This document shows, in pieces, positions 8,939 through 36,500 of a DNA stretch of 41,761 bases (positions within the stretch are counted from its first letter, which is position 1; each line of letters begins with the position of its first letter). Below the pieces are notes generated by a model that made no database searches, was not told the DNA's origin, and worked only from the letters and a program-made list of their open reading frames with translations. The position numbers and the translations under genes were made by a program. This DNA comes from Chrysochromulina tobinii (taxonomy: Eukaryota): assembly GCA_001275005.1 (NCBI GenBank), contig JWZX01002622.1, positions 1 through 41,761 on the forward strand, read 5' to 3'.

Positions 8939-11644
8939 ATGCTGGCCCACACGTGTTGCACGCACGGCGATCCAAACGTTGCAAGGCGCACCGCCGTGCT
9001 CTTACATGGCATGTTCGGCGACCGCCGTGACTTCGAGCAGCTTCGCCATGCTCTCAGTTCACTCATGGACTGCGTAAGCCTCGATCTTCCGGGCCATGGC
9101 GACAGCGCCCATCTCGGCGTGACGTCTGTCGCTGCTCTTGACGCCGTGATTGCGACGATCGAAGTGGCTACTCCAGACCGTGAGGTTGTTCTGATTGGCT
9201 ACTCGATGGGCGGCCGCCTGGCAATTCAGCTCGCCGCCGCGCGTTTGCAGGCGCAGGGCTGGCTGATTTCTGGCCTCATCATCCTGAGCGGCAACCCGGG
9301 CATGGACGACGAGGCCGAGCGACGGGAAAGGCTTGCGCACGACGCTCGCCTGGCCAAGCGCCTGCGCTCGATGCCGCCGCTGACATTTGCCGCGTGGCTT
9401 CGCGACGAGTGGTATGCACTACCTCTGTGGGGCCGCCACCTGCGCGCTCATCCCGCCTTTGACGAGATGCTCAGCCGACGCTGCGACGGAGCGCGTGCTG
9501 CGGACCGCGCCGCCGTCCTTGAGCGTGAGAGCGTGGGCTGCCAGCCGAGCTACTGGGACTGGCTCAGCGCGCCTCCGCTCCCGGTGCTCTTCGTAGCTGG
9601 TGGAGAGGACGCGACTTACACCAAGGTGGCCCGTGAGCTCTCGAGGAGGAGATCCGAGATTCGTCGAGATTCGTTGGATCCAGACGGCTCGGGGGCACGA
9701 GGAGATCCTGCCCACTTGCAAGTGGCCATCGTGCCGCACGTGGGCCATGCGCTGCTCACCGAGGATGCGCAATCGACCATCGACCTTTGCCTCACCTTCC
9801 TGCAGCAGCTGCCAGAGTCGGCGGTTCCGACGGCCCAGCCCAAGGCCGCAGAGGGGCAGCTGCCGCCGCCGCCGCCGCCGCCGCCGTCACAGCTCCAAAG
9901 GACGACGATGCACGCAGTCCGGCTGACCTCGCATGCACGCATGCTCCCGTTCCGGCTGCCACTGACAGCCCCTCTGCCGCTCGCGAGAGGTCCACCGCTC
10001 ACACAGCGTGAGGGCTACCTGCTGTTGCTCAGCGGGTCTACCGAGGACGGCCGGAGCGTGTGCGGCATAGGAGAGCTGTGCCCTCTGCCAGGTTTCCACA
10101 CCGAAGGCCTCGAGGCGGCTACTGAGCAGATGCGCACGATCGCACCGCGGCTTGCAGGCCGCAGCCTCCCTCTCTCGCTCGCGCAGCTCGATGGCACCTT
10201 AGCCGCCTGGCTCACCGCTCTTCTCCCCCAAACGTCGACACCCCTCCTCCCCAGCGTCCGGTGCGCTCTGGAGATGGCGATCTTGCATGTGCTCGCGCGT
10301 GCGACACAGGCGACGAGCATCGCACAACTCTATGCGCACCATCGGCAGGCCGCGTGGCACTCGCACGTACGCATCAACGGGTTGCTCGGCCGAGGCGAAT
10401 CGAGCGAGCTCGAGGCAGTGGCGGAGGCAAGTGCTGCGGCGAAGCTCTCGGTTGCTTTTGTGGCATCTCCCGAAGAGTGGCATGAGCCCGAAGAGCTCCC
10501 GGTTGCTTTCGTGGCATCTCCCAAAGAGGCTCAGTGGCATGAGCCCGAAGAGCTACCGGTTGCTTTTGTGGCATCTCCCGAAGAGGCTCAGTGGCATGAG
10601 CCCGAAGAGCTACCGGTTGCTTTTGTGGTATCTCCTGAAGAGGCTCAGTGGCATGAGCCCGAAGAGCTCCCGGTTGCTTTCGTGGCATCTCCCGAAGAGG
10701 CTCAGTGGCATGAGCCGCATGAGCTCCCGGTTGCTGCTGTGGCATCTCCCGAAGGAAGCGCCTCGGCCTATCGCATGCGCACGTGGAAGGTGAAGGTGGG
10801 GGGCACTGACCCCGTCGAGGATGCCAAGCGCATCTGCCGGCTGCTCATCGGATGTACATCGCTCGGGCTACGCCTTCGACTCGATGCGAATCAGGCGTGG
10901 AACGTGGCCCAGGCCGGCGTCTTCTGCGTACACTTGAGGCAGCAGTGGCTCGCGAGTTGCGCCACCGATCGTGCGGCCGATTGTGAGGCCGATCGTGAGG
11001 CGGACTGGCCGCCAGACGCCCTTGAATTCTGCGAAGAGCCGCTGGGGCCGTCGCTCGAGGCGTCGCTGCCTGGGTTGCATGCGGCCTACGGGCTGCGCCA
11101 CGCACTGGATGAGAGTGTGCTGCCCGCGGCTGTGCAGTTGGAGTCGCCTACGAGGCCGCGGGCAGCGTCGCAGGGTGCGAGCGAGGAGGACCACGAGGAG
11201 GACGCTCGAGACGACGCTCGTGGAGGAGGAGGAGGAGGAGCCCTCGAGGCGCTTCGGTCGCGCCTGAGTCACGTGAGCTGTGCAGCGATCGTGCTCAAGC
11301 CGACAATCCTCGGCGGGATGGAGGTGAGTGCCCGCTTGGCTGCCGAGGCTAGCGCACTTGGCAAGGGCGTGGTCTTGACCTCAGCTTTCGAATCGGGCGT
11401 CGCACTCGCACACGTCGCCATGCTGGCGGCTGTTGTGGGGGGAGCCAGCACTGCTCACGGGCTCTCCACCTTTGAGCGGCTGCAAAGTGACGTGCTGCAT
11501 CCGAGCTTTGCGGCGGCCGTCATCGGTGACCTGGTCGATGTGTCCAAGCTCCAAGCTGCGCTCGATGCTACAGCCGATGCGCTGCACTCGAGGACGGACT
11601 TGGAGGCTCTGGACGAGGGGTCACACGCAAGTCGTAATGTTTGA
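8939..11644 (+). CDS. menH-menC: Bifunctional MenH (SHCHC synthase, alpha/beta hydrolase) - MenC (o-succinylbenzoate synthase) fusion; phylloquinone/menaquinone pathway
   Basis: N-half: LLHGMFG, LDLPGHG, GYSMGGRLA, VAGGED, VGHALL. C-half: REGYLL, GELCPLPGF, PSVRCALEMA, KVKVG, LRLDAN, EEPL, ALDES, LKPTILGG, SAFESG. First in-frame ATG is at 8939. Confidence 0.88.
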   Translation: MLAHTCCTHGDPNVARRTAVLLHGMFGDRRDFEQLRHALSSLMDCVSLDLPGHGDSAHLGVTSVAALDAVIATIEVATPDREVVLIGYSMGGRLAIQLAAARLQAQGWLISGLIILSGNPGMDDEAERRERLAHDARLAKRLRSMPPLTFAAWLRDEWYALPLWGRHLRAHPAFDEMLSRRCDGARAADRAAVLERESVGCQPSYWDWLSAPPLPVLFVAGGEDATYTKVARELSRRRSEIRRDSLDPDGSGARGDPAHLQVAIVPHVGHALLTEDAQSTIDLCLTFLQQLPESAVPTAQPKAAEGQLPPPPPPPPSQLQRTTMHAVRLTSHARMLPFRLPLTAPLPLARGPPLTQREGYLLLLSGSTEDGRSVCGIGELCPLPGFHTEGLEAATEQMRTIAPRLAGRSLPLSLAQLDGTLAAWLTALLPQTSTPLLPSVRCALEMAILHVLARATQATSIAQLYAHHRQAAWHSHVRINGLLGRGESSELEAVAEASAAAKLSVAFVASPEEWHEPEELPVAFVASPKEAQWHEPEELPVAFVASPEEAQWHEPEELPVAFVVSPEEAQWHEPEELPVAFVASPEEAQWHEPHELPVAAVASPEGSASAYRMRTWKVKVGGTDPVEDAKRICRLLIGCTSLGLRLRLDANQAWNVAQAGVFCVHLRQQWLASCATDRAADCEADREADWPPDALEFCEEPLGPSLEASLPGLHAAYGLRHALDESVLPAAVQLESPTRPRAASQGASEEDHEEDARDDARGGGGGGALEALRSRLSHVSCAAIVLKPTILGGMEVSARLAAEASALGKGVVLTSAFESGVALAHVAMLAAVVGGASTAHGLSTFERLQSDVLHPSFAAAVIGDLVDVSKLQAALDATADALHSRTDLEALDEGSHASRNV
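10450..10755 (+). repeat. In-frame 57-nt (19-aa) tandem repeat, ~5 copies, inside MenC
   Basis: Unit VAFVASPEEAQWHEPEELP; GGTTGCTTT recurs at 10501 and 10558 (period 57). Confidence 0.95.
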
Positions 11645-17548: not shown

Positions 17549-19917
17549 TTAGAGCGGGCTGAGCGTCACCCACGGAAAGTGGAAGCAGTCGGGCTGTCCC
17601 TCGTGCGAGAACGTGGCGTTGCTCCGGAGCGTGGACCAGCAAAAGACGGGCTGCTGGTCGTACGTCGGCCCCATGCGCACGTCGACCTCGGGGCCAACGG
17701 CTCGCGATCCCCCCCGGGGAGATGCGGCCGAGATCCCCGAGATGTCGACCTCGGGGCCAACGGCTCGCGATCCCCCCCGAGGAGATGCGGCCGAGATCCC
17801 CGAGATCACGCGAGATGCAGACGAGATCTTCGAGTCGGTCCCCCCCGACGGGTAGACGTCCTTGAGCTCGAGCTCGAGATCGCGACGGCTCGCGATCGCA
17901 TGCGACGGGTTCGCCTCACTCAGCGGATCCACCTTCCAGTTGTTGTACTGCATCAAGTCGCGCATGTCCGCCACCGTCGCGAGGGCGCCGTGGCGGTTTC
18001 GGAAGATGTTGGCGCGAGGGCACGAGTCCCAGCAGGAGTCGTTGTTCGGTGGCGTGGACACGCGCCCTAGCTCGCACGCCGCCGTGTTGCCCGATTTGCG
18101 CGAGATCTGGTCGAGATAGGGGATGTTGTACGAGGCCCAGTAGCCTTCCGCGTTGAGGAACCAGGTGAGGTCTTCCACACCGACCTCGCCCGGGATCTCC
18201 TCGGCGATGACGAAACTCTCGACCGGTAGGTCTTGGCCAGGGGTGAAGCGGCTGAGGTCGAGGATCTGCCACTGGTTCGTGTAGGTGCCTGCTCGGGGAG
18301 GGACTTCTGATGAGGGACACAATCACATGCAATCAGATGCAATCAGCGCACCTGCTGGAGGAGGGACTTCTGATGAGGGACACAATCACATGCAATCAGA
18401 GGCAATCAGCACACCTGAGGCCTCCTTTGCGAAGAGCGTCGCCCACGACGGCGCTGTCGTCGCGAGGGTGTTCGCGGTGATCGCTCGCGCCCAACAGAGG
18501 CACGATCTCGGCGTCACCAGCTCGAAGAGCTCCGGATTGTACACGTCATTAGTGGTCTCGATGACCGCGAGCTGTGCCGAGGCCGAGTGCACGATGTAAA
18601 AGTCGTCGAGCGATGCGAGCAACCCTGGCGAGGACGAGAAGTGCACCTGTGGGGAGAGTGGCAGTAGCGGAGGCGCCGCGGTGAGCACTTGCATGCGCGG
18701 CGGGTGAGGAGCAGCCCTGGCGAGCTCGCAATCTGGCGGCAGGAGCGGAGGCGCCGCGGTGAGCACTTGCATGCGCGGCGGGTGAGACGAGGGGCGAGCT
18801 CGCAATCTGGAGAGACGAGACGTGTACCTGGCGTATCTCCGGCTGCGGAGGCGGCGCGTGCGCGGACAGGTGGAGTAGTACCGGCAGGGAGAGGTGCTTG
18901 AAGGTGCGCGGACCTGTGGGGAGAGAGGCGCCGTGGTGAGCGCTTGCATGCTGGCCTCAGAAGGGAGAGGTGCTCGAAGGTGCGCGGGCCCATGGCCGAG
19001 AAGGAGCTCCAGGTCGTGTACTCAGGGGTCATCAGAGGTCATCAGAGGTCATCAGAGGTCATCAGGGGTCATCAGAGGTCATCAGGACCCATGGCTGAGA
19101 AGGAGCTCCAGGTCGTGTGTGCGAAGAGGACGTCACTCCGGTCCGGCAGCAGCTTGAAGAGCGACGAGCATCGGAGGTCCACTGGGAGCTCCGTCTTTGG
19201 ATAGTACAGTCTCGAGTTGTAGATGGGGCCGCGAGGGTCGAATCTCCGAGATTGGATCTCGGGCTGATGGAATTTGGACTTGATCGTGTACATGTCGCCC
19301 CATGCCTGCACAAAGAGCAGCTTGAGCACGTTCATCCCGGTCGACGGGAGCAGGTCCTCGGCCGTGTACGCGCCCGCCGCCAGCGCACCGAAGTCGAAGT
19401 CGAGGGCGCCGCGCGGGGCTTGCGGGCTCAAGCATGGCGACTGCGCATAGCCCTCAGCGATGCCATGGAGCTGCTCCAGCGTGGACTTGATGCTGAACCA
19501 GAACGCGTCCGCCGCGTGCGCCTCGGCCGCCATCCGCTCCATGTATAGGTAGTTCTCTACGATGAAGCCCACGATGGCCGCCGGCGGAGGGCCCTCGAAA
19601 TTCGAGTAGAACATGTTGGGATACGAGTCGCTGATGCCTTGGCAGGCGAGAGTGCCCTCGGCAAACCCGGCCGCGCGATACACTTTCAGGACATCCTCCG
19701 GCGTGCTCGCGTTCTCGGCCACCGTCTCGACGCTCAGATAGCCCCAGCCGCTCTCTTGAGTGTTGTTCGTGTAGCTCACGGAGACGAGCGCGCCGCTTGT
19801 GGGCCGGACCGCGCCAATCTGTAGGCCGCCGCGGCCGTCGACGTACACGTAGCTCCTGGGGTGCGGCTCGGCGCGCACGAGAGCACAAGATACTGCCGTA
19901 TACAAGAAGGCACTCAT
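17549..19917 (-). CDS. Phospholipase B-like (PLBD / lamina ancestor, Ntn hydrolase); exons 19917-19089, 18913-18828, 18646-18415, 18288-17549 (~628 aa)
   Basis: Signal peptide, SGWGYLSV, AAGFAEG, CSSLFKLLPDRSDVLFAHTTW (Ntn Cys), FSSSPG..SLDDFY, IETTN, SGTYTNQW (restored by splicing), YWASYNIPY, PRANIF, GGTDSK, GPT. All three junctions are frame-consistent. Confidence 0.92.
17681..17806 (-). repeat. 63-nt in-frame tandem duplication in the last PLB exon
   Basis: ISGISAASPRGGSRAVGPEVD x2; units start at 17681 and 17744. Confidence 0.92.
18289..18414 (-). other. Intron made of two back-to-back 63-nt GT..AG units
   Basis: Units 18414-18352 and 18351-18289 are near-identical; removing both restores ASGTYTNQW. 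Confidence 0.88.
18647..18827 (-). other. Intron (181 nt) with exon-like head and two copies of the acceptor cassette
   Basis: CAG|GTACACGTCTCGTC...CTCTCCCCACAG|GTGCACTTCTCGTC; GCATGCAAGTGCTCACCGCGGCGCCTC occurs twice. Confidence 0.85.
18914..19088 (-). other. Intron (175 nt) with CTGATGACCT repeats, an internal copy of the spliced junction and the acceptor cassette
   Basis: ATGG|GTCCTGATGACC...CTCTCTCCCCACAG|GTCCGCGC; splicing gives SAMGPRTFKH. Confidence 0.8.
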
Positions 19918-20120: not shown

Positions 20121-20966
20121 ATGCCGCGACTCGGCCGACCGCTCGCCGCCCTCATCATCGGCGTGGCGCTCCACGCCTGGGCCGCTCCGTCCGCGGACGA
20201 GCTGCAGGCCTTCCGTGATACGCGCGGCACCATGTGCCGTGCGGTCGTGCGCGAGATGCACATCGAGATCCACAAGCATAAGCTCCGCAAGAACGGCGAG
20301 GACGACATCTACGAGACGGTGCCGGCAATCTGCCTGGCGATCGTGCAGAACTACTCGCTCACGGCCACGGCACCGCCCTCGCGCAAGTGGTCGCTGAAGA
20401 AGCGGGCCGTGCGCCTCGACGATGACGACGCATTGGATCAGAATCCATCCATGATGATGCATCTGATCACGCTCAAGAAGGCGTGCGAGCACTTCACCGA
20501 CGACTTCCAGCAGGAGCTGTCAGAGCTCATGTACCGATCCGCGCTGCTGCACGACATTGAGCCGATCGTGTCCGAGTTCTGCGAGTCAGATGTGGTCGTG
20601 CAGCCGCCCAAGCCGCCGCCATCGCCGCGCAAGCGCGTAGTGGGCAGCGATGGCGGCGCCAACGGCGGCGGCAGCAGCGGCGGCAGCGGCAGCAGCGGCA
20701 GCGGCAGGAGGCTGAGCAGCGACACGAGCAAAACCAAGGACAGCAGCAGCAGCAGCAGCAGTAGCAGCGGCGGCGGCGGCGGAAGCAGCAGCAGCGGCAG
20801 CAGTGGCAGCAGCAGCAGCAGCAGCAGCAGCGCCCGTAGGAAGTCGAGCGCCAGCAGCGCAGGCGATCGGTCCGACACGGACGGCGGTGGGCGCATGCCC
20901 GATATGGCCGAGCTGCTCAAGCGGTTCGACACCGACGGTTCGATCTCGCCGGCGGAGAACCTCTGA
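20121..20966 (+). CDS. Secreted saposin-like (Canopy/MZB1-like) protein with Ser/Gly-rich tail; 3' end uncertain
   Basis: Signal peptide MPRLGRPLAALIIGVALHAWA and Cys spacing CRAVV...ICL...LKKACEHF...EFC. The ORF runs into the 10-nt repeat array, so the stop codon may be intronic. Confidence 0.6.
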   Translation: MPRLGRPLAALIIGVALHAWAAPSADELQAFRDTRGTMCRAVVREMHIEIHKHKLRKNGEDDIYETVPAICLAIVQNYSLTATAPPSRKWSLKKRAVRLDDDDALDQNPSMMMHLITLKKACEHFTDDFQQELSELMYRSALLHDIEPIVSEFCESDVVVQPPKPPPSPRKRVVGSDGGANGGGSSGGSGSSGSGRRLSSDTSKTKDSSSSSSSSSGGGGGSSSSGSSGSSSSSSSSARRKSSASSAGDRSDTDGGGRMPDMAELLKRFDTDGSISPAENL

Positions 20967-21586
20967 TGACCTCTGATGACCTCTGATGACCTCTGATGAC
21001 CTCTGATGACCTCTGATGACCTCTGATGACCTCTGATGACCTCTGCTGACCTCTGCTGACCTCTGATGACCTCTGATGACCTCTGCTGACCTCTGATGAC
21101 CTCTGATGACCTCCGATGACCTCCGATGACCTCTGATGACCTCTGATGACCTCTGATGACCTCTGATGACCTCTGATGGCCTCTGATGACCTCTGATGAC
21201 CTCTGATGGCCACTGATGACCTCCGATGACCACCGATGACATCGGACGACCTCGGATGACCTCTGATGACCTCCGATGACCTCTGCTGACCTCTGATGAC
21301 CTCTGATGACCTCTGATGATATCTGATGACCTCTGATGACCTCTGATGACCTCTGATGACCTCCGATGACCTCTGCTGACCTCTGATGACCTCTGATGAC
21401 CTCTGCTGACCTCTGATGACCTCTGATGACCTCTGATGACCTCTGATGACCTCTGATGACCTCCGATGACCTCCGATGACCTCCGAAGACCTCTGATGAC
21501 CTCTGATGACCTCTGATGACCTCTGAGGACCTCTGATGACCTCTGATGGCCTCTGATGACCTCTGATGACCTCTGATGACCTCTCA
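20958..21586 (+). repeat. ~62 copies of a 10-nt satellite (CTCTGATGAC)n
   Basis: Directly visible tandem array with variants CTCCGATGAC and CTCTGCTGAC. The same unit occurs in introns at ~19020-19086 and ~35286-35345. Confidence 0.97.
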
Positions 21587-21615: not shown

Positions 21616-21740
21616 GCAATCAGGTGCAATCAGGTGCAATCAGGTGCAATCAGGTGCAATCGGATGTAATCAGGGGAGCCAGCTGGGCGCGGAGCACCTG
21701 CCAATCAGGTGCAATCAAGTGCAATCAGATGCAATCAGGA
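21616..21740 (-). repeat. (CTGATTGCAC)n 10-nt repeats in intron-like context on the minus strand
   Basis: Plus strand shows CAGGTGCAAT repeats; minus strand reads G|GTCCTGATTGC...GATTGGCAG|GTGCTCC. Confidence 0.75.
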
Positions 21741-27800: not shown

Positions 27801-29693
27801 AGCGCGTGCGTCCGACACGGCCTCTGTCTACTCTGACTCCACCTACTCGAGTGCTGTCACGAGCGCCGCTAGCAAGGCGCCAGCTGGGCCGGGGCCGGCC
27901 CAGGGAGGGGCGAGGCGGGCTGGAGCGAGCGGAGGCGGTGGCTACATGCAATCTCGAAGTCATCTCGGAGGCGGCTACATGCCTCTTGTCGACGAGGAGC
28001 CGGTAGAGGATGCCGGGCTCGGTTGGTTCCAACGAGCCTTGGGGGAGGGGGCAAAGCCGGCAGAGGATGCCGGGCTTGGCTGGTTCAAACGATCTGTTGT
28101 GCCTGTAGACCCCCTCCTCGTCAACAATGTGGGGGAGGAGGCGGAAACGCAAGGGCCGTTCGAAAGCTCCGAGCCTGGAGCCGAGCCTGGCGAGCTTCCG
28201 GATGGCGCCGAGATGGGCGCGCTCGTGTCCTCGGCGCTCTCCAGCCCGCGTAGCTCGTCGAGCTCGACCAATCTCGGAGTGATCTCGAACGGCTCGTATG
28301 CGAAGCCCCCCCCGAAGGGCTGGAGGCCCGTACAGGCGCGTGAGCCTGATGATGCGGATCATCGGATTCCATGGGTGGAGGGGCTGACAAGGGCGGACGC
28401 GGCCGCCACGTCTTCGGCGCATGCCGCCACCAGTGCGGCGTTCCCGGCGCTAACGGTCGACGAGCCCGTGCCCTCCGCAGCCGCCGCCGAGGGCACACTC
28501 GAGAGTTCCCAAAGCTCTTCCCACGCCGAGGGCACATTCGAGTCGGGGAGGAGGCAAGGGTCGGCGCCGAGCTCCTCGGCTGCATCTGCAGCCGGCTCGT
28601 CGGCTGCGATGGGCTCCTCGGCCTCGTGTATGTACCAGATTGGACGCGCCATCGCGCAGGTCTTCGGCTTCACGGCGCGTGACAACTTCGCGACAAACCG
28701 ACTCCTCTATCTTCTCAGCTGGGACATGTTCGCCTTCGGTGGGTGCGCGTCTGTGTTCGCACTGCTCTTGCTCATGCTGGCTCAGCAGTCGGCGAGCCTG
28801 CAACCCGATCGCAACCTGACACTGCCGATCGTGCTGCTCTCACCTTCCTTTTATGGCTCATGGAGAGTCGAGATCACCTTCTTCCTGGTGCGGCTCGTGT
28901 ACGCACTCTCAGCGCTCCCCTTTATGATCTTTCACCTGCCTTTTGTGCGCGACCTCCTCTCGCACACTTTCGCGACGGGCTACACGAAGCGCGGCGTGTG
29001 CGTCGCCTACGATCGGAGCGGCCTCAGCGCCTTTATAGAGTGGCTCGATCAGTTCCTCCAGCTGCCAGCGGCTCAGGTACTTAGCACCAAGGAGCGCGCG
29101 AAGATCGAGAAAGCCCTGACTGTGGCGCGAGAGTGCCTCGTGGACGAGGATGGCGGCGAGCTCGAGCGCCCGCCGCCGAAGCAGGTGACCACGCGACATA
29201 GAGCGGACCTCATCAGTGCGCTCGAGGCGATCGTGCCGCCCACGCACCCGCTCTTCCCACAGCTCTTTCCCGAGCGACAGATTTGCCTTGAGTACGCGGA
29301 GCGCGTGCGTCACGAGGCGGCCCGTAAGCGCGAGGGCGCTGTGAAAGCGGCCCGGAGCACGAGCCAGACTGCGTTCAAGAGCTGGGAGGAGCACCAGTCT
29401 TCCAAGTATGGAGAGGCGTGGCAGTCTTCCTCGCGCATGCAACTGCTCACTACGGCGCCTCTCCTCCCCACAGGTATGGAGTGGCGTGGCAGCGCGACAG
29501 CGAGGCGACCAACTGCACGCTGTGTGACAGCGCCTTCCACCTGCTTTTGAGGCGGCGCCATCACTGCCGGCTGTGCGGTCGGCTCGTTTGCGACCCGTGC
29601 TCCAAGTCGCGTCGTGTGCCACGTGGCAGCAGCAACAGTGCGAAGCCCGAGCGTGCATGTGATCGATGTGCGCAGGACACTGAAGACGCATGA
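24883..29693 (+). CDS. Large multi-pass membrane protein with C-terminal FYVE finger; exons 24883-26873, 26966-27125, 27379-29405, 29474-29693 (~1465 aa)
   Basis: Three frame-consistent GT-AG introns join the ORFs (LLYAYLPYDRSTW, DEYQ|LMQFIMALKG, SSKYGVAWQRD). Several hydrophobic segments. FYVE motifs WQRD, CTLC, RRHHCRLCG, VCDPC, RACDRC. Confidence 0.82.
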
Positions 29694-33545: not shown

Positions 33546-36500
33546 TTAGAAGACAGTCTGATGTGAGCTGAGTCTGTCAGTCGACAGGCGCTCGGACGAA
33601 ACGCGCTCCGACGACGGGCGCTCTGACGAAACGCGCTCCGACGACGGGCGCTCTGACGAAGTCCGACTGGACGAGGATTTGGGGAAGGCAGCTTCGAGCA
33701 TGTCGCTCGTCGACAGCCCCTTCCACTGGTCGAGCCGGTTGCTGTCGAACTCACCGAGGATGGATTCGTGAGCTGCGTCAGGCACTGCGCAGTGTTCGAA
33801 GTTGAGCTTCCTCTGGAGCACGAGGGCTCTGGGACCTGCCCGAGACGTGCACTTGCTGCTGGGTGCCGGGGTGCTGCACTGTGCCGTGCCTTTCTCGGAG
33901 TCGGATACGGAGGACTGCCCACCGTCGGCGTCAGCAACCTGTGCGAGCGTCAAGTACTGTTTTCCTTTCGCCTTGGCCGCACTCTTGGACGGCTTCAAGG
34001 CCGACTTGGGCGTGAGCTCCGAGGACGAGATCGATGAGGTTGACGAATGAGCCCCTGGCAGTCTGGACGGGGTCGAGATCGAACCTGGCGATCTGGAAGG
34101 GGTCGAGATCGAACCTGGCGATCTGGACGGGGTCGAGATCGAACCTGGCGATCTGGACGAGCTGGTCCCTGGCTGGCGTGACGTAGATGGGCTCTTCGTC
34201 TTCTTGAGGCGTGGAGTCCGAGAGGCCTTGAGGCGAGCCGACTTGAGCCGGGCGGTTTTGAGGCGGGCCGACTTTGAATGCTCATGCAAGCTCGTGATGC
34301 TCTTCGGGGGTGATCGTGCCCGCGCTTGGGCCGCTTCCACAGCTGCCTGGATCACGCTCAGTTCCTCCTCTCGTCTGGCGGAGCCGAGGCGTGCGAGCTC
34401 GTCTGCTTTGGACGGATGCGGCAACTGCGAGCGCCATGTGGGCGGCGCCCGCCCCTCGCGCTTCAGGTGGCTGAGCACACGCGTGGCCTCCTGCACACAG
34501 GCCTCATAGACGGGGTTACGGCTGTTCTGGTTGCCGGCGCCGGTGGCCTCGTTGAGAGCGCGAAGGAGCTGTGGGGAGAGGGGCGAGGCTCCGATTTGAG
34601 CACTTACACACTTACATGCAAGGCTAGGGCTTGGGGGTTGAGGGCAAAAAGGAGGAGCTGCGCGCACCTCCGCCGCCTCGGCGGTGGAGTAGCCGAGCCA
34701 GAGTCGCCCTTCTCGAGAGGGCGAGCGGGAGGGCGAGCGGGAGGAGCGTGCGGCCCCGCGTGCCGTCCCACGAGAGGACTGTGGGGAACGTGCGGACGTG
34801 CTCGAGGGGGAGCGCCTCGGCGGGGTGACGAACTCGAACTCGGTCTGGGGTTGATCTTCATCTTGTGGAGCCGCCTTACGGAGTGCCCCGCCTTTGCGCG
34901 GCGACGACAGATTGGTCGGCACCCAACTCGGCGCCTCAGTTGGCCCTCTTGGAGCGAGCTCGAACTGAGATCGCTCCTCCTCCTCCTCCGCGTCCTCCCA
35001 CTCTTGGCGGCCGTGCTCGGGCCGAGGATGGAGTGCCTTCGTAAGCGCCACGTGGGCATTCTGCATGCGCCGCTCGGGGATCACGTGCTCAGGCTCCTGC
35101 TTGCACGGGTGCCAGCCCAGCCAGCCTTCGTTCCTCGCGTCTCTCAGGTTGCTGAGGGTCTGCCGGTCCAGATCGCGTCTTCGAGCGTTCATCTCTTCGA
35201 GCGTCTCCTTGGCCTTGGCGCGCTCTTCCTCCGTCACTCGCAGCACACTCTCCAACCTCGCTGCCTTGAGAGCGGCCTGTACCTGCAATCAGAGGTCATC
35301 AGAGGTCATCAGAGGTCATCAGAGGTCATCAGAGGTCATCAGAGCTCTCCAATCTCGCAACCTTGAGAGCGGCCTGTACCTGCAATCGGGGGGAGGCACT
35401 CCGTTGCCATCAGAGACAATCAGGGGTGGCCAACAGACGCAGCCAGGGGCCATCAGAGGCCATCAGAGGCACTCCGAGCTGAGTGTACCTGCACTGGATC
35501 AGATGAGAGCTCGGCGACGGCGAGGTGTGCGCCCGTCCCGGCGCCCGTCACCGCCGTCACTGTGGGACTTCCGTGGTCAACGCTCGGCCCGCCCGCTTTC
35601 AACGCAATGTCGAGCGGCGACGCGCCCCACTTGTTCTGGATCGCCTTGTGGGCCCCATGATGCAGTAGCGTTCGGATCACGGCAGGGTTGTTCTTGCGAG
35701 CGGCCTCGTGAAGAGCAGTACTCCCATCGACGCTGACGAGATTGACGATCTCGACGCCGAGATTGCTTGCGAGCACGAGCAACGCGTTGCACACACCGAG
35801 GTGGCCTGCTCGCACCGCGTAGTGCAGCACGCTCAAACCGTACATATCCACTGCAGTGAGCACCTCCTTCGCGCTTGTATGGTTGCCAAGGCGGCCGCTG
35901 AAGCTTAAGACGAGGTCTAGAACGGGCAGCTTGCCGCTCTTGGCCGCCCAGTGCAGCGGCGTCTGTCCCAAGGTATCGGTCTGAGTCAGCATCTCCCCCC
36001 TCTGGGCAGGCCCGGCACTCTCGAGGATCTGACGGAGCGGTTTGAGGTGCGTTCCGGTGCGCATGCATAGCCACACGAGCAGCTTGCGCCCCTCCCTAAT
36101 ATGGGCAAGCATGGCTCGCCAGGTGTTGATCGCACGCCGCGGGGCAATACCGAGGAAGGCGCTCGCCGCTCGCCTCCGCGCACGCACTTTTCTCATGATC
36201 TCATTCAGGCCGGCCCAAAACCGGCGCGCGCCCCAAATGTATTCTTGCACTTGCTTCACCTTTTCAAGCTTGGCCACCAACGCGCGCTTCTCCTCGACCA
36301 ACTTGAGCCAGCGCCGCACGAGGTAGCACCTCTGATGATGCCGATCAGCGCGGTCGAGCATACTCTTGACTCGCAAGAGCTCCCTGAACCGCTCAAGCGC
36401 CTCGAGCTTCGCCGCACCTTCCGGGTCGACGATTCTGCGGAAGCCATCGCGCAATCGCTTGCGCTGGGCGGCCAGCTGCATGAACTCGACCCGCCACTTG

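Follow-up and report, generated by a model that had tools for sequence, protein, structure and literature searches.

Introns that abut one another without an exon between them have been described in fungal snoRNA clusters, where the transcripts of these juxtaposed 'complex introns' include partly spliced products in 32 of 42 ESTs (PMC3596301). Fungal stwintrons, by comparison, are nested, and some of them are cut in one step or in two (PMC7138796). Recursive sites reported in short human introns are mostly bypassed (PMC10156609), and dual-specific AGGT sites occur in tandem repeats (PMC10809524). Regarding the gain of introns, routes reviewed include both duplication spanning AGGT and break repair (PMC3443670). 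Finally, introners with a 4-nt target duplication have been reported in Chrysochromulina sp., the criteria for an introner including end-to-end similarity and at least four copies (PMC9860276).

In this work, we analysed a twin intron located in a phospholipase B gene of Chrysochromulina tobinii, in a window corresponding to the whole stretch of 41,761 nt. As in fungal complex introns, complete GT..AG introns abut without an exon; the fungal ones are distinct, carry snoRNAs and were brought together by exon loss in non-coding RNAs, whereas the twin consists of near-identical copies within a coding gene, and the RNA contigs gave no partial product of it. Stwintrons also place two intron units in one intervening sequence, but their inner intron, as reported, breaks a splice signal of the outer one, whereas the units of the twin lie side by side, with the outer donor and acceptor intact and joined in RNA. 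The twin shares with recursive AG/GT splicing an internal acceptor abutting a donor, which a first cut would rebuild; however, the twin intron is only 126 nt long and its internal site, a candidate by sequence, would be a by-product of copying. As in intron gain by AGGT duplication, duplication across AG/GT makes splice pairs and exon copies flank many introns here, but the duplicated unit of the twin is intronic, would come from another locus and carries almost no exon copy. With the introners described for Chrysochromulina, the twin has in common a short intron sequence present in unrelated genes, a 4-nt end repeat and the lack of inverted ends; it differs from them in being stacked rather than single, with few end-to-end copies found, exon copies of 2-36 nt and a satellite-rich context. 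Three motif words were not found in the part of the PMC9860276 supplement that was searched, which is a weak negative. In a literature survey carried out mostly by title, no published account of stacked or exon-tagged intron copying in haptophytes was found.

Where new introns come from is still argued, and donor-recipient intron pairs are scarce. Several of them seem to occur in this genome, with a direction legible from exon scraps (clear from locus L005 to locus L017, putative from L025 to the phospholipase B gene), and we consider these pairs the part most worth following. As for the twin itself, we favour an intron module that was imported and doubled, in a genome with common stacks.

The twin intron in its host gene

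The host is a four-exon phospholipase B-like gene, the model of which encodes 628 aa (Table 1). The exons flanking the twin match adjoining parts of PF04916 (profile positions 214-287 and 289-441) above the Pfam cut-off and continuously across the twin. In the comparison with 4bwc_B, residue 74 of the 77 residues of exon 3 aligns to position 118 and residue 1 of exon 4 to position 123, which leaves no gap. The twin interrupts the Gly codon of SGTYTNQW, a motif that an earlier, sequence-only reading of this DNA had considered conserved (as SGTYxNQW); GTYxNQ was matched in 33 of 39 homologues, 26 of these 33 having SGTYTNQW.

Table 1 Features of the phospholipase B gene and of its twin intron (positions in the window)
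Feature	Position	Strand	Remarks
Exon 1	19089..19917	-	phospholipase B gene model
Intron 1, 175 nt	18914..19088	-	ends inferred from reading frame
Exon 2	18828..18913	-	RNA contigs and gene model
Intron 2, 181 nt	18647..18827	-	skipped in RNA
Exon 3	18415..18646	-	ends in CAG, phase 1
Unit 1, 63-nt GT..AG	18352..18414	-	donor GTGTGC, ends in CAG, TGA at 18388-18386
First 45 nt of unit 1, module ending in CCCTCATCAG	18370..18414	-	same stretch of unit 2 at 18307-18351
Internal CAG/GT junction ('zero-length exon')	18350..18354	-	in unspliced contigs; not observed as a splice joint
Unit 2, 63-nt GT..AG	18289..18351	-	donor GTGCGC, ends in CAG, TGA at 18325-18323
Exon 4	17549..18288	-	begins with G, ends at stop codon

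The same reading had described two GT..AG units with a zero-length exon between them, and we found them abutting exactly at the positions given. The units are identical at 59 of 63 positions, with a longest identical run of 41 nt; they form a tandem of period 63 and score 232 in Tandem Repeats Finder (TRF), and a 31-nt core of the twin has two copies in the window but none in 100 shuffles. Each unit contains an in-frame TGA at unit positions 27-29. Translation stops when either unit is retained and reads ...KEASGTYTNQW... when both are removed; both must go, as had been proposed, and a single excision with the first GT as donor and the last AG as acceptor suffices. CAG/G is present at all three junctions of the twin, and at the middle one the acceptor directly abuts a donor (CAG/GTGCGC at 18354-18346), an arrangement expected of a recursive site. 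Since every unit possesses a donor, a branch-point-like word and a CAG, this anatomy would let each be cut alone; in unit 1, CTCAT, 22 nt from the unit end, is the putative branch-point-like word.

Each 63-nt unit can be divided into a 45-nt module, which ends in CCCTCATCAG and is common to at least three loci besides the twin, and a further 18 nt. Elsewhere CCCTCATCAG resembles an ordinary acceptor; it is unused as such in the twin. No unusual RNA fold of the twin was detected (174 of 200 shuffles fold equally well, z = +1.06), nor were inverted ends on the twin unit, where the sole repeat at the ends is CAG/G. This repeat is ambiguous as a target duplication, because the splice consensus yields CAG/G too.

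That a single intron was written twice during assembly is largely refuted, and its probability is negligible. The 41-nt identical core does break contigs at the twin: the DNA-run contigs of X1 and X11, among the pieces listed, break off at 18326 and start again at 18388, as expected of a repeat, and one RNA contig (X16 record 7) is chimeric. However, the units differ at four sites, and their junction is bridged without mismatch by RNA-run contigs of X13 (18308-18400) and X17 (18308-18389), with 38-49 nt on each side. Moreover, the twin is unchanged in two other assemblies, inside 7,772 (L009) and 7,707 (L023) consecutive identical bases; these count as separate assemblies and not as separate strains, since they may derive from one culture. 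The second unit, the absence of which would have undone the sequence-only reading, thus exists. X16 record 7 was also considered as another twin locus and rejected, its loose ends showing a chimera of an L017 exon, the shared core and the twin junction.

Removal of the twin from RNA

The RNA evidence consists of assembled contigs, which drop rare forms, from five of six RNA runs (X13, X14, X16, X17 and X18). A contig skipping all 126 nt, with the CAG of unit 2 as acceptor, was present in the five runs. Rarer joints were judged in X14, X16, X17 and X18 (X13 cannot be judged for these), and in these four runs the 126-nt skip was the only joint, at depths of 24.7-30.7. No 63-nt (i.e. one-unit) joint was found in any of the four at contig resolution, contigs being kept down to a depth of 2.6, and the internal CCCTCATCAG acceptor, which would add six residues, was unused in the contigs of the same four runs. 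In X17, the whole unspliced path was visible at depths of 5.9, 10.3 and 7.7 beside the spliced joint at 25.4. A check for DNA, confined to X13 and X16, gave zero depth beyond the gene, compared with 40-48 there in DNA runs.

From these data, removal in one step is likely to be the main route. The sequence-only reading had named as one candidate recursive splicing, i.e. units excised in turn as 63-nt introns, a proposal that concerns the route only, fits any origin and appears rather doubtful to us. It draws on the complete set of signals in every unit, on the rebuilding of CAG/GT by removal of unit 1 and on the stepwise or alternative-acceptor products reported for juxtaposed fungal introns (PMC3596301), but the four runs in which it could be judged gave, at contig resolution, only the single 126-nt excision, an outcome that had been named beforehand as speaking against it. 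In X17, the middle junction of the unspliced path is not lower than the two outer ones, and short human introns with recursive sites are reported to be mostly cut conventionally (PMC10156609). The RNA contigs argue against a long-lived one-unit intermediate only; a second step that follows quickly would escape them, and recursive splicing, although unsupported, keeps some chance because contigs drop rare forms.

Whichever donor-acceptor pair is chosen, the product would be either a clean mRNA or an RNA with one complete 63-nt intron left. As all splicing routes would lead to the same mRNA, the doubling is likely neutral, and it looks like a by-product of a duplication-rich genome rather than a regulatory device. 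The twin also offers a natural test of nearest versus outermost splice-site choice, four marker bases distinguishing every route.

Related introns and the origin of the twin

Metagenome contigs were scanned once with the 21-nt core as an exact pattern, which yielded 25 loci in five sites; exons at loci other than the phospholipase B gene were inferred from reading frames. In an unrelated, non-paralogous gene (L013, L021 and L025), the unit is 95-97 % identical and occurs in full twice, followed by an 81-nt GT..AG unit (63+63+81). The matching site of a freshwater relative, L022, holds the full unit once (63+81), with 17 mismatches in 774 aligned bases. The putative L025 intron continues with the 81-nt unit and has a different end, so that the similarity is not end-to-end over both introns. 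Each unit of the twin shows four differences from its neighbour, three from the L025 units and two from the L022 unit, and units 1 and 2 share no derived change (i.e. star-like differences). The unit-unit junction also lies within the match of a further DNA contig, which shows 8 differences over 86 nt; as L025 gives 4, a third full-unit site is probable. In this strain, the full unit was found at two loci, this probable third apart, and in the exact-pattern scan never as a free-standing single intron.

At L025, the end of the unit duplicates 8 nt from the end of the local exon, and its beginning duplicates that of the resident intron, whereas the matching repeat at the twin site is only 3+1 nt. 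This difference (8 nt of local exon end versus 3 nt) makes it likely that the unit arose at L025 and was then exported. In other copies of the module, the similarity is confined to its first 45-49 nt or its last 32 nt, and exon copies of 8-25 nt are present. We counted 48 occurrences of the CCCTCATCAG ending in the sample, of which 22 precede GT; at the L019 site, it occupies the expected acceptor position. Loose ends of the L017 and L025 types were found in the same RNA runs as the phospholipase B gene. No intron-less or single-unit allele of the latter was found (none of seven short, diverged loci is this gene), nor did the scan recover its orthologous locus from a relative, and the unit patterns gave nothing in the viral contigs and prokaryotic genomes searched. 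At L019 (9962-10183), a 62-nt unit composed of an acceptor module and an exon start has three core matches in culture assemblies, and four short, diverged loci (L001, L006, L007 and L008) have one or two. A 1.4-kb multi-copy segment, 92-96 % identical, was also noticed at L025 11155-12621, L005 13089-14535, L017 16071-17549 and L002; from its translation, we take it to be an ankyrin-like gene. It lies near three of the five module sites, but no link with the module was found and its position is probably a coincidence.

Stacked introns were surveyed in 125,118 non-redundant bases (window and flanks, taken as one strain). Nine stacked GT..AG arrangements were tabulated, four of which had been picked by the search pattern and five lie outside it; a tenth stack (58+58 nt) was seen outside the tabulated nine. 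The exon copy in stacked units is 2-36 nt long, most of the nine carrying 5-36 nt. Only two stacks are clean-edged: the twin and a 47+48-nt pair at L017 (5730-5636, minus strand). The ends of this pair were inferred from the reading frame, and it is weaker evidence, its 48-nt unit being open in frame and unsupported by RNA. Further stacks, produced by duplication across inferred splice sites, are located at L009 19525-19670 (where only two 73-nt units were used), L019 7349-7634, 8418-8533 and 14287-14382, and L017 6511-6238, with units of 73, 69, 58, 48 and 69 nt, respectively.

Copying of a whole compound intron is illustrated by L005 and L017. The L005 intron (9981-10137, plus strand) is a 72+85-nt intron whose first unit terminates with 25 nt copied from the L005 exon. 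The L017 intron (10041-9882, minus strand; 72+88 nt), which belongs to a different gene, shows only three differences from it over its first 130 nt, includes 24 nt of the L005 exon and closes with 22 nt copied from the exon of L017 itself. From sequence comparison, L005 would clearly be the donor and L017 the recipient. Since the latter holds both a foreign exon piece and a local duplication, the compound intron, with its internal AG/GT, was copied whole from one gene to the other and then closed by the local duplication, which speaks for a DNA-level event rather than reverse splicing.

We thus read the 126 nt as one intron, whose 63-nt unit was copied at the DNA level from an unrelated gene into a CAG/G site, probably already doubled, both copies being absent from mature RNA (probability of about 0.6). 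The twin, the 126-nt skip and the near-identical units at unlinked loci are direct observations. The unit would have been born at the L025 site, the presumed direction of copying being from there, and a DNA-repair-like or template-switch event may have copied it into the CAG/G of the phospholipase B gene. Such an import is plausible, since L005 and L017 indicate that whole compound introns are copied in this genome and since introns 1 and 2 of the same gene also carry exon copies. Taken alone, doubling before arrival is held tentatively, and doubling just after arrival with more reserve; the star-like differences would fit a doubled arrival, an immediate local doubling or two insertions alike. 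The doubling in the donor may be later or independent, as L022 has one unit, or the latter may reflect a collapsed assembly.

Whole-intron duplication had also been put forward from the sequence. A doubled intron with exact ends is indeed what we found, but a purely local origin gives an incomplete account, as the unit is already stacked in an unrelated gene. Insertion of one unit followed by local doubling, through slippage between the bracketing CAG/G repeats, is possible rather than probable. The CAG/G at all three junctions would suit it, as would the frequency of tandem duplications of at least 35 nt (45 TRF rows in 125 kb), the variable copy number between assemblies (one, two or three matches of the 62-nt unit) and the clean L017 pair, which has no full-length copy among the loci compared. 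Against it, each unit of the twin is nearer to units elsewhere than to its neighbour, with no derived change in common, and the unit-unit junction pre-exists at L025 and is matched by the further DNA contig.

The insertion is precise, with only CAG/G repeated, and would be consistent with reverse splicing or a 4-nt target duplication as well; the star-like differences agree with insertions made independently. The regenerated CAG/G site may have been entered twice by a mobile introner or a reverse-spliced intron, in line with the introners of about 70 nt, with a 4-nt target duplication and no terminal inverted repeats, reported in Chrysochromulina (PMC9860276). We hold this to be unlikely: in the exact-pattern scan, the full unit came up at so few loci of the strain and never single, it contains satellite-like repeats, and partial module copies with exon pieces are not expected from reverse splicing. 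Reverse splicing or homing, mentioned in the sequence-only reading as also able to give exact boundaries, is not needed to explain them, since other stacks carry exon copies of 2-36 nt and tandem copies spanning AG/GT look exact. Any tandem copy spanning AG/GT gives GT..AG units without an exon between them, and we regard the twin as the clean-edged end of a common stacking process. An enrichment of AG/GT in tandem repeats was not evident, AGGT being in register in 18 of 45 TRF rows (overlaps unmerged) versus 0.34 for a random 63-mer. A broader view, in which introns spread between unrelated genes as pre-stacked mini-intron cassettes, some with donor exon scraps, and each 63-nt unit is cut in turn, seems unlikely; if true, it would join traceable intron-to-intron copying to a coding gene in which very short introns are spliced recursively.

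Further repeats in the host gene and its surroundings

Exon 4 contains an in-frame 63-nt coding tandem repeat (17681-17806, 21 residues twice), the period of which equals that of the twin and which is present in RNA contigs. Intron 1, into which unspliced contigs of X13 and X16 extend, combines a 10-nt satellite with two adjoining exon copies, one of 30 nt from the end of exon 1 and one of 26 nt from the start of exon 2. Together, these two exon copies resemble an intron-less ancestral junction, and the arrangement would fit two insertions in succession, both accompanied by a long target duplication. Intron 2 opens with a diverged copy of the beginning of exon 3, from which its GT would come. 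It also contains a tandem duplication of 78 nt internally, and its 3' module is found again in intron 1 and at window positions 29432-29475. The 10-nt satellite family is found in the window at 19022-19085, 20959-21584, 21616-21739 and 35288-35470, fills many introns and reaches a very high summed depth in DNA runs.
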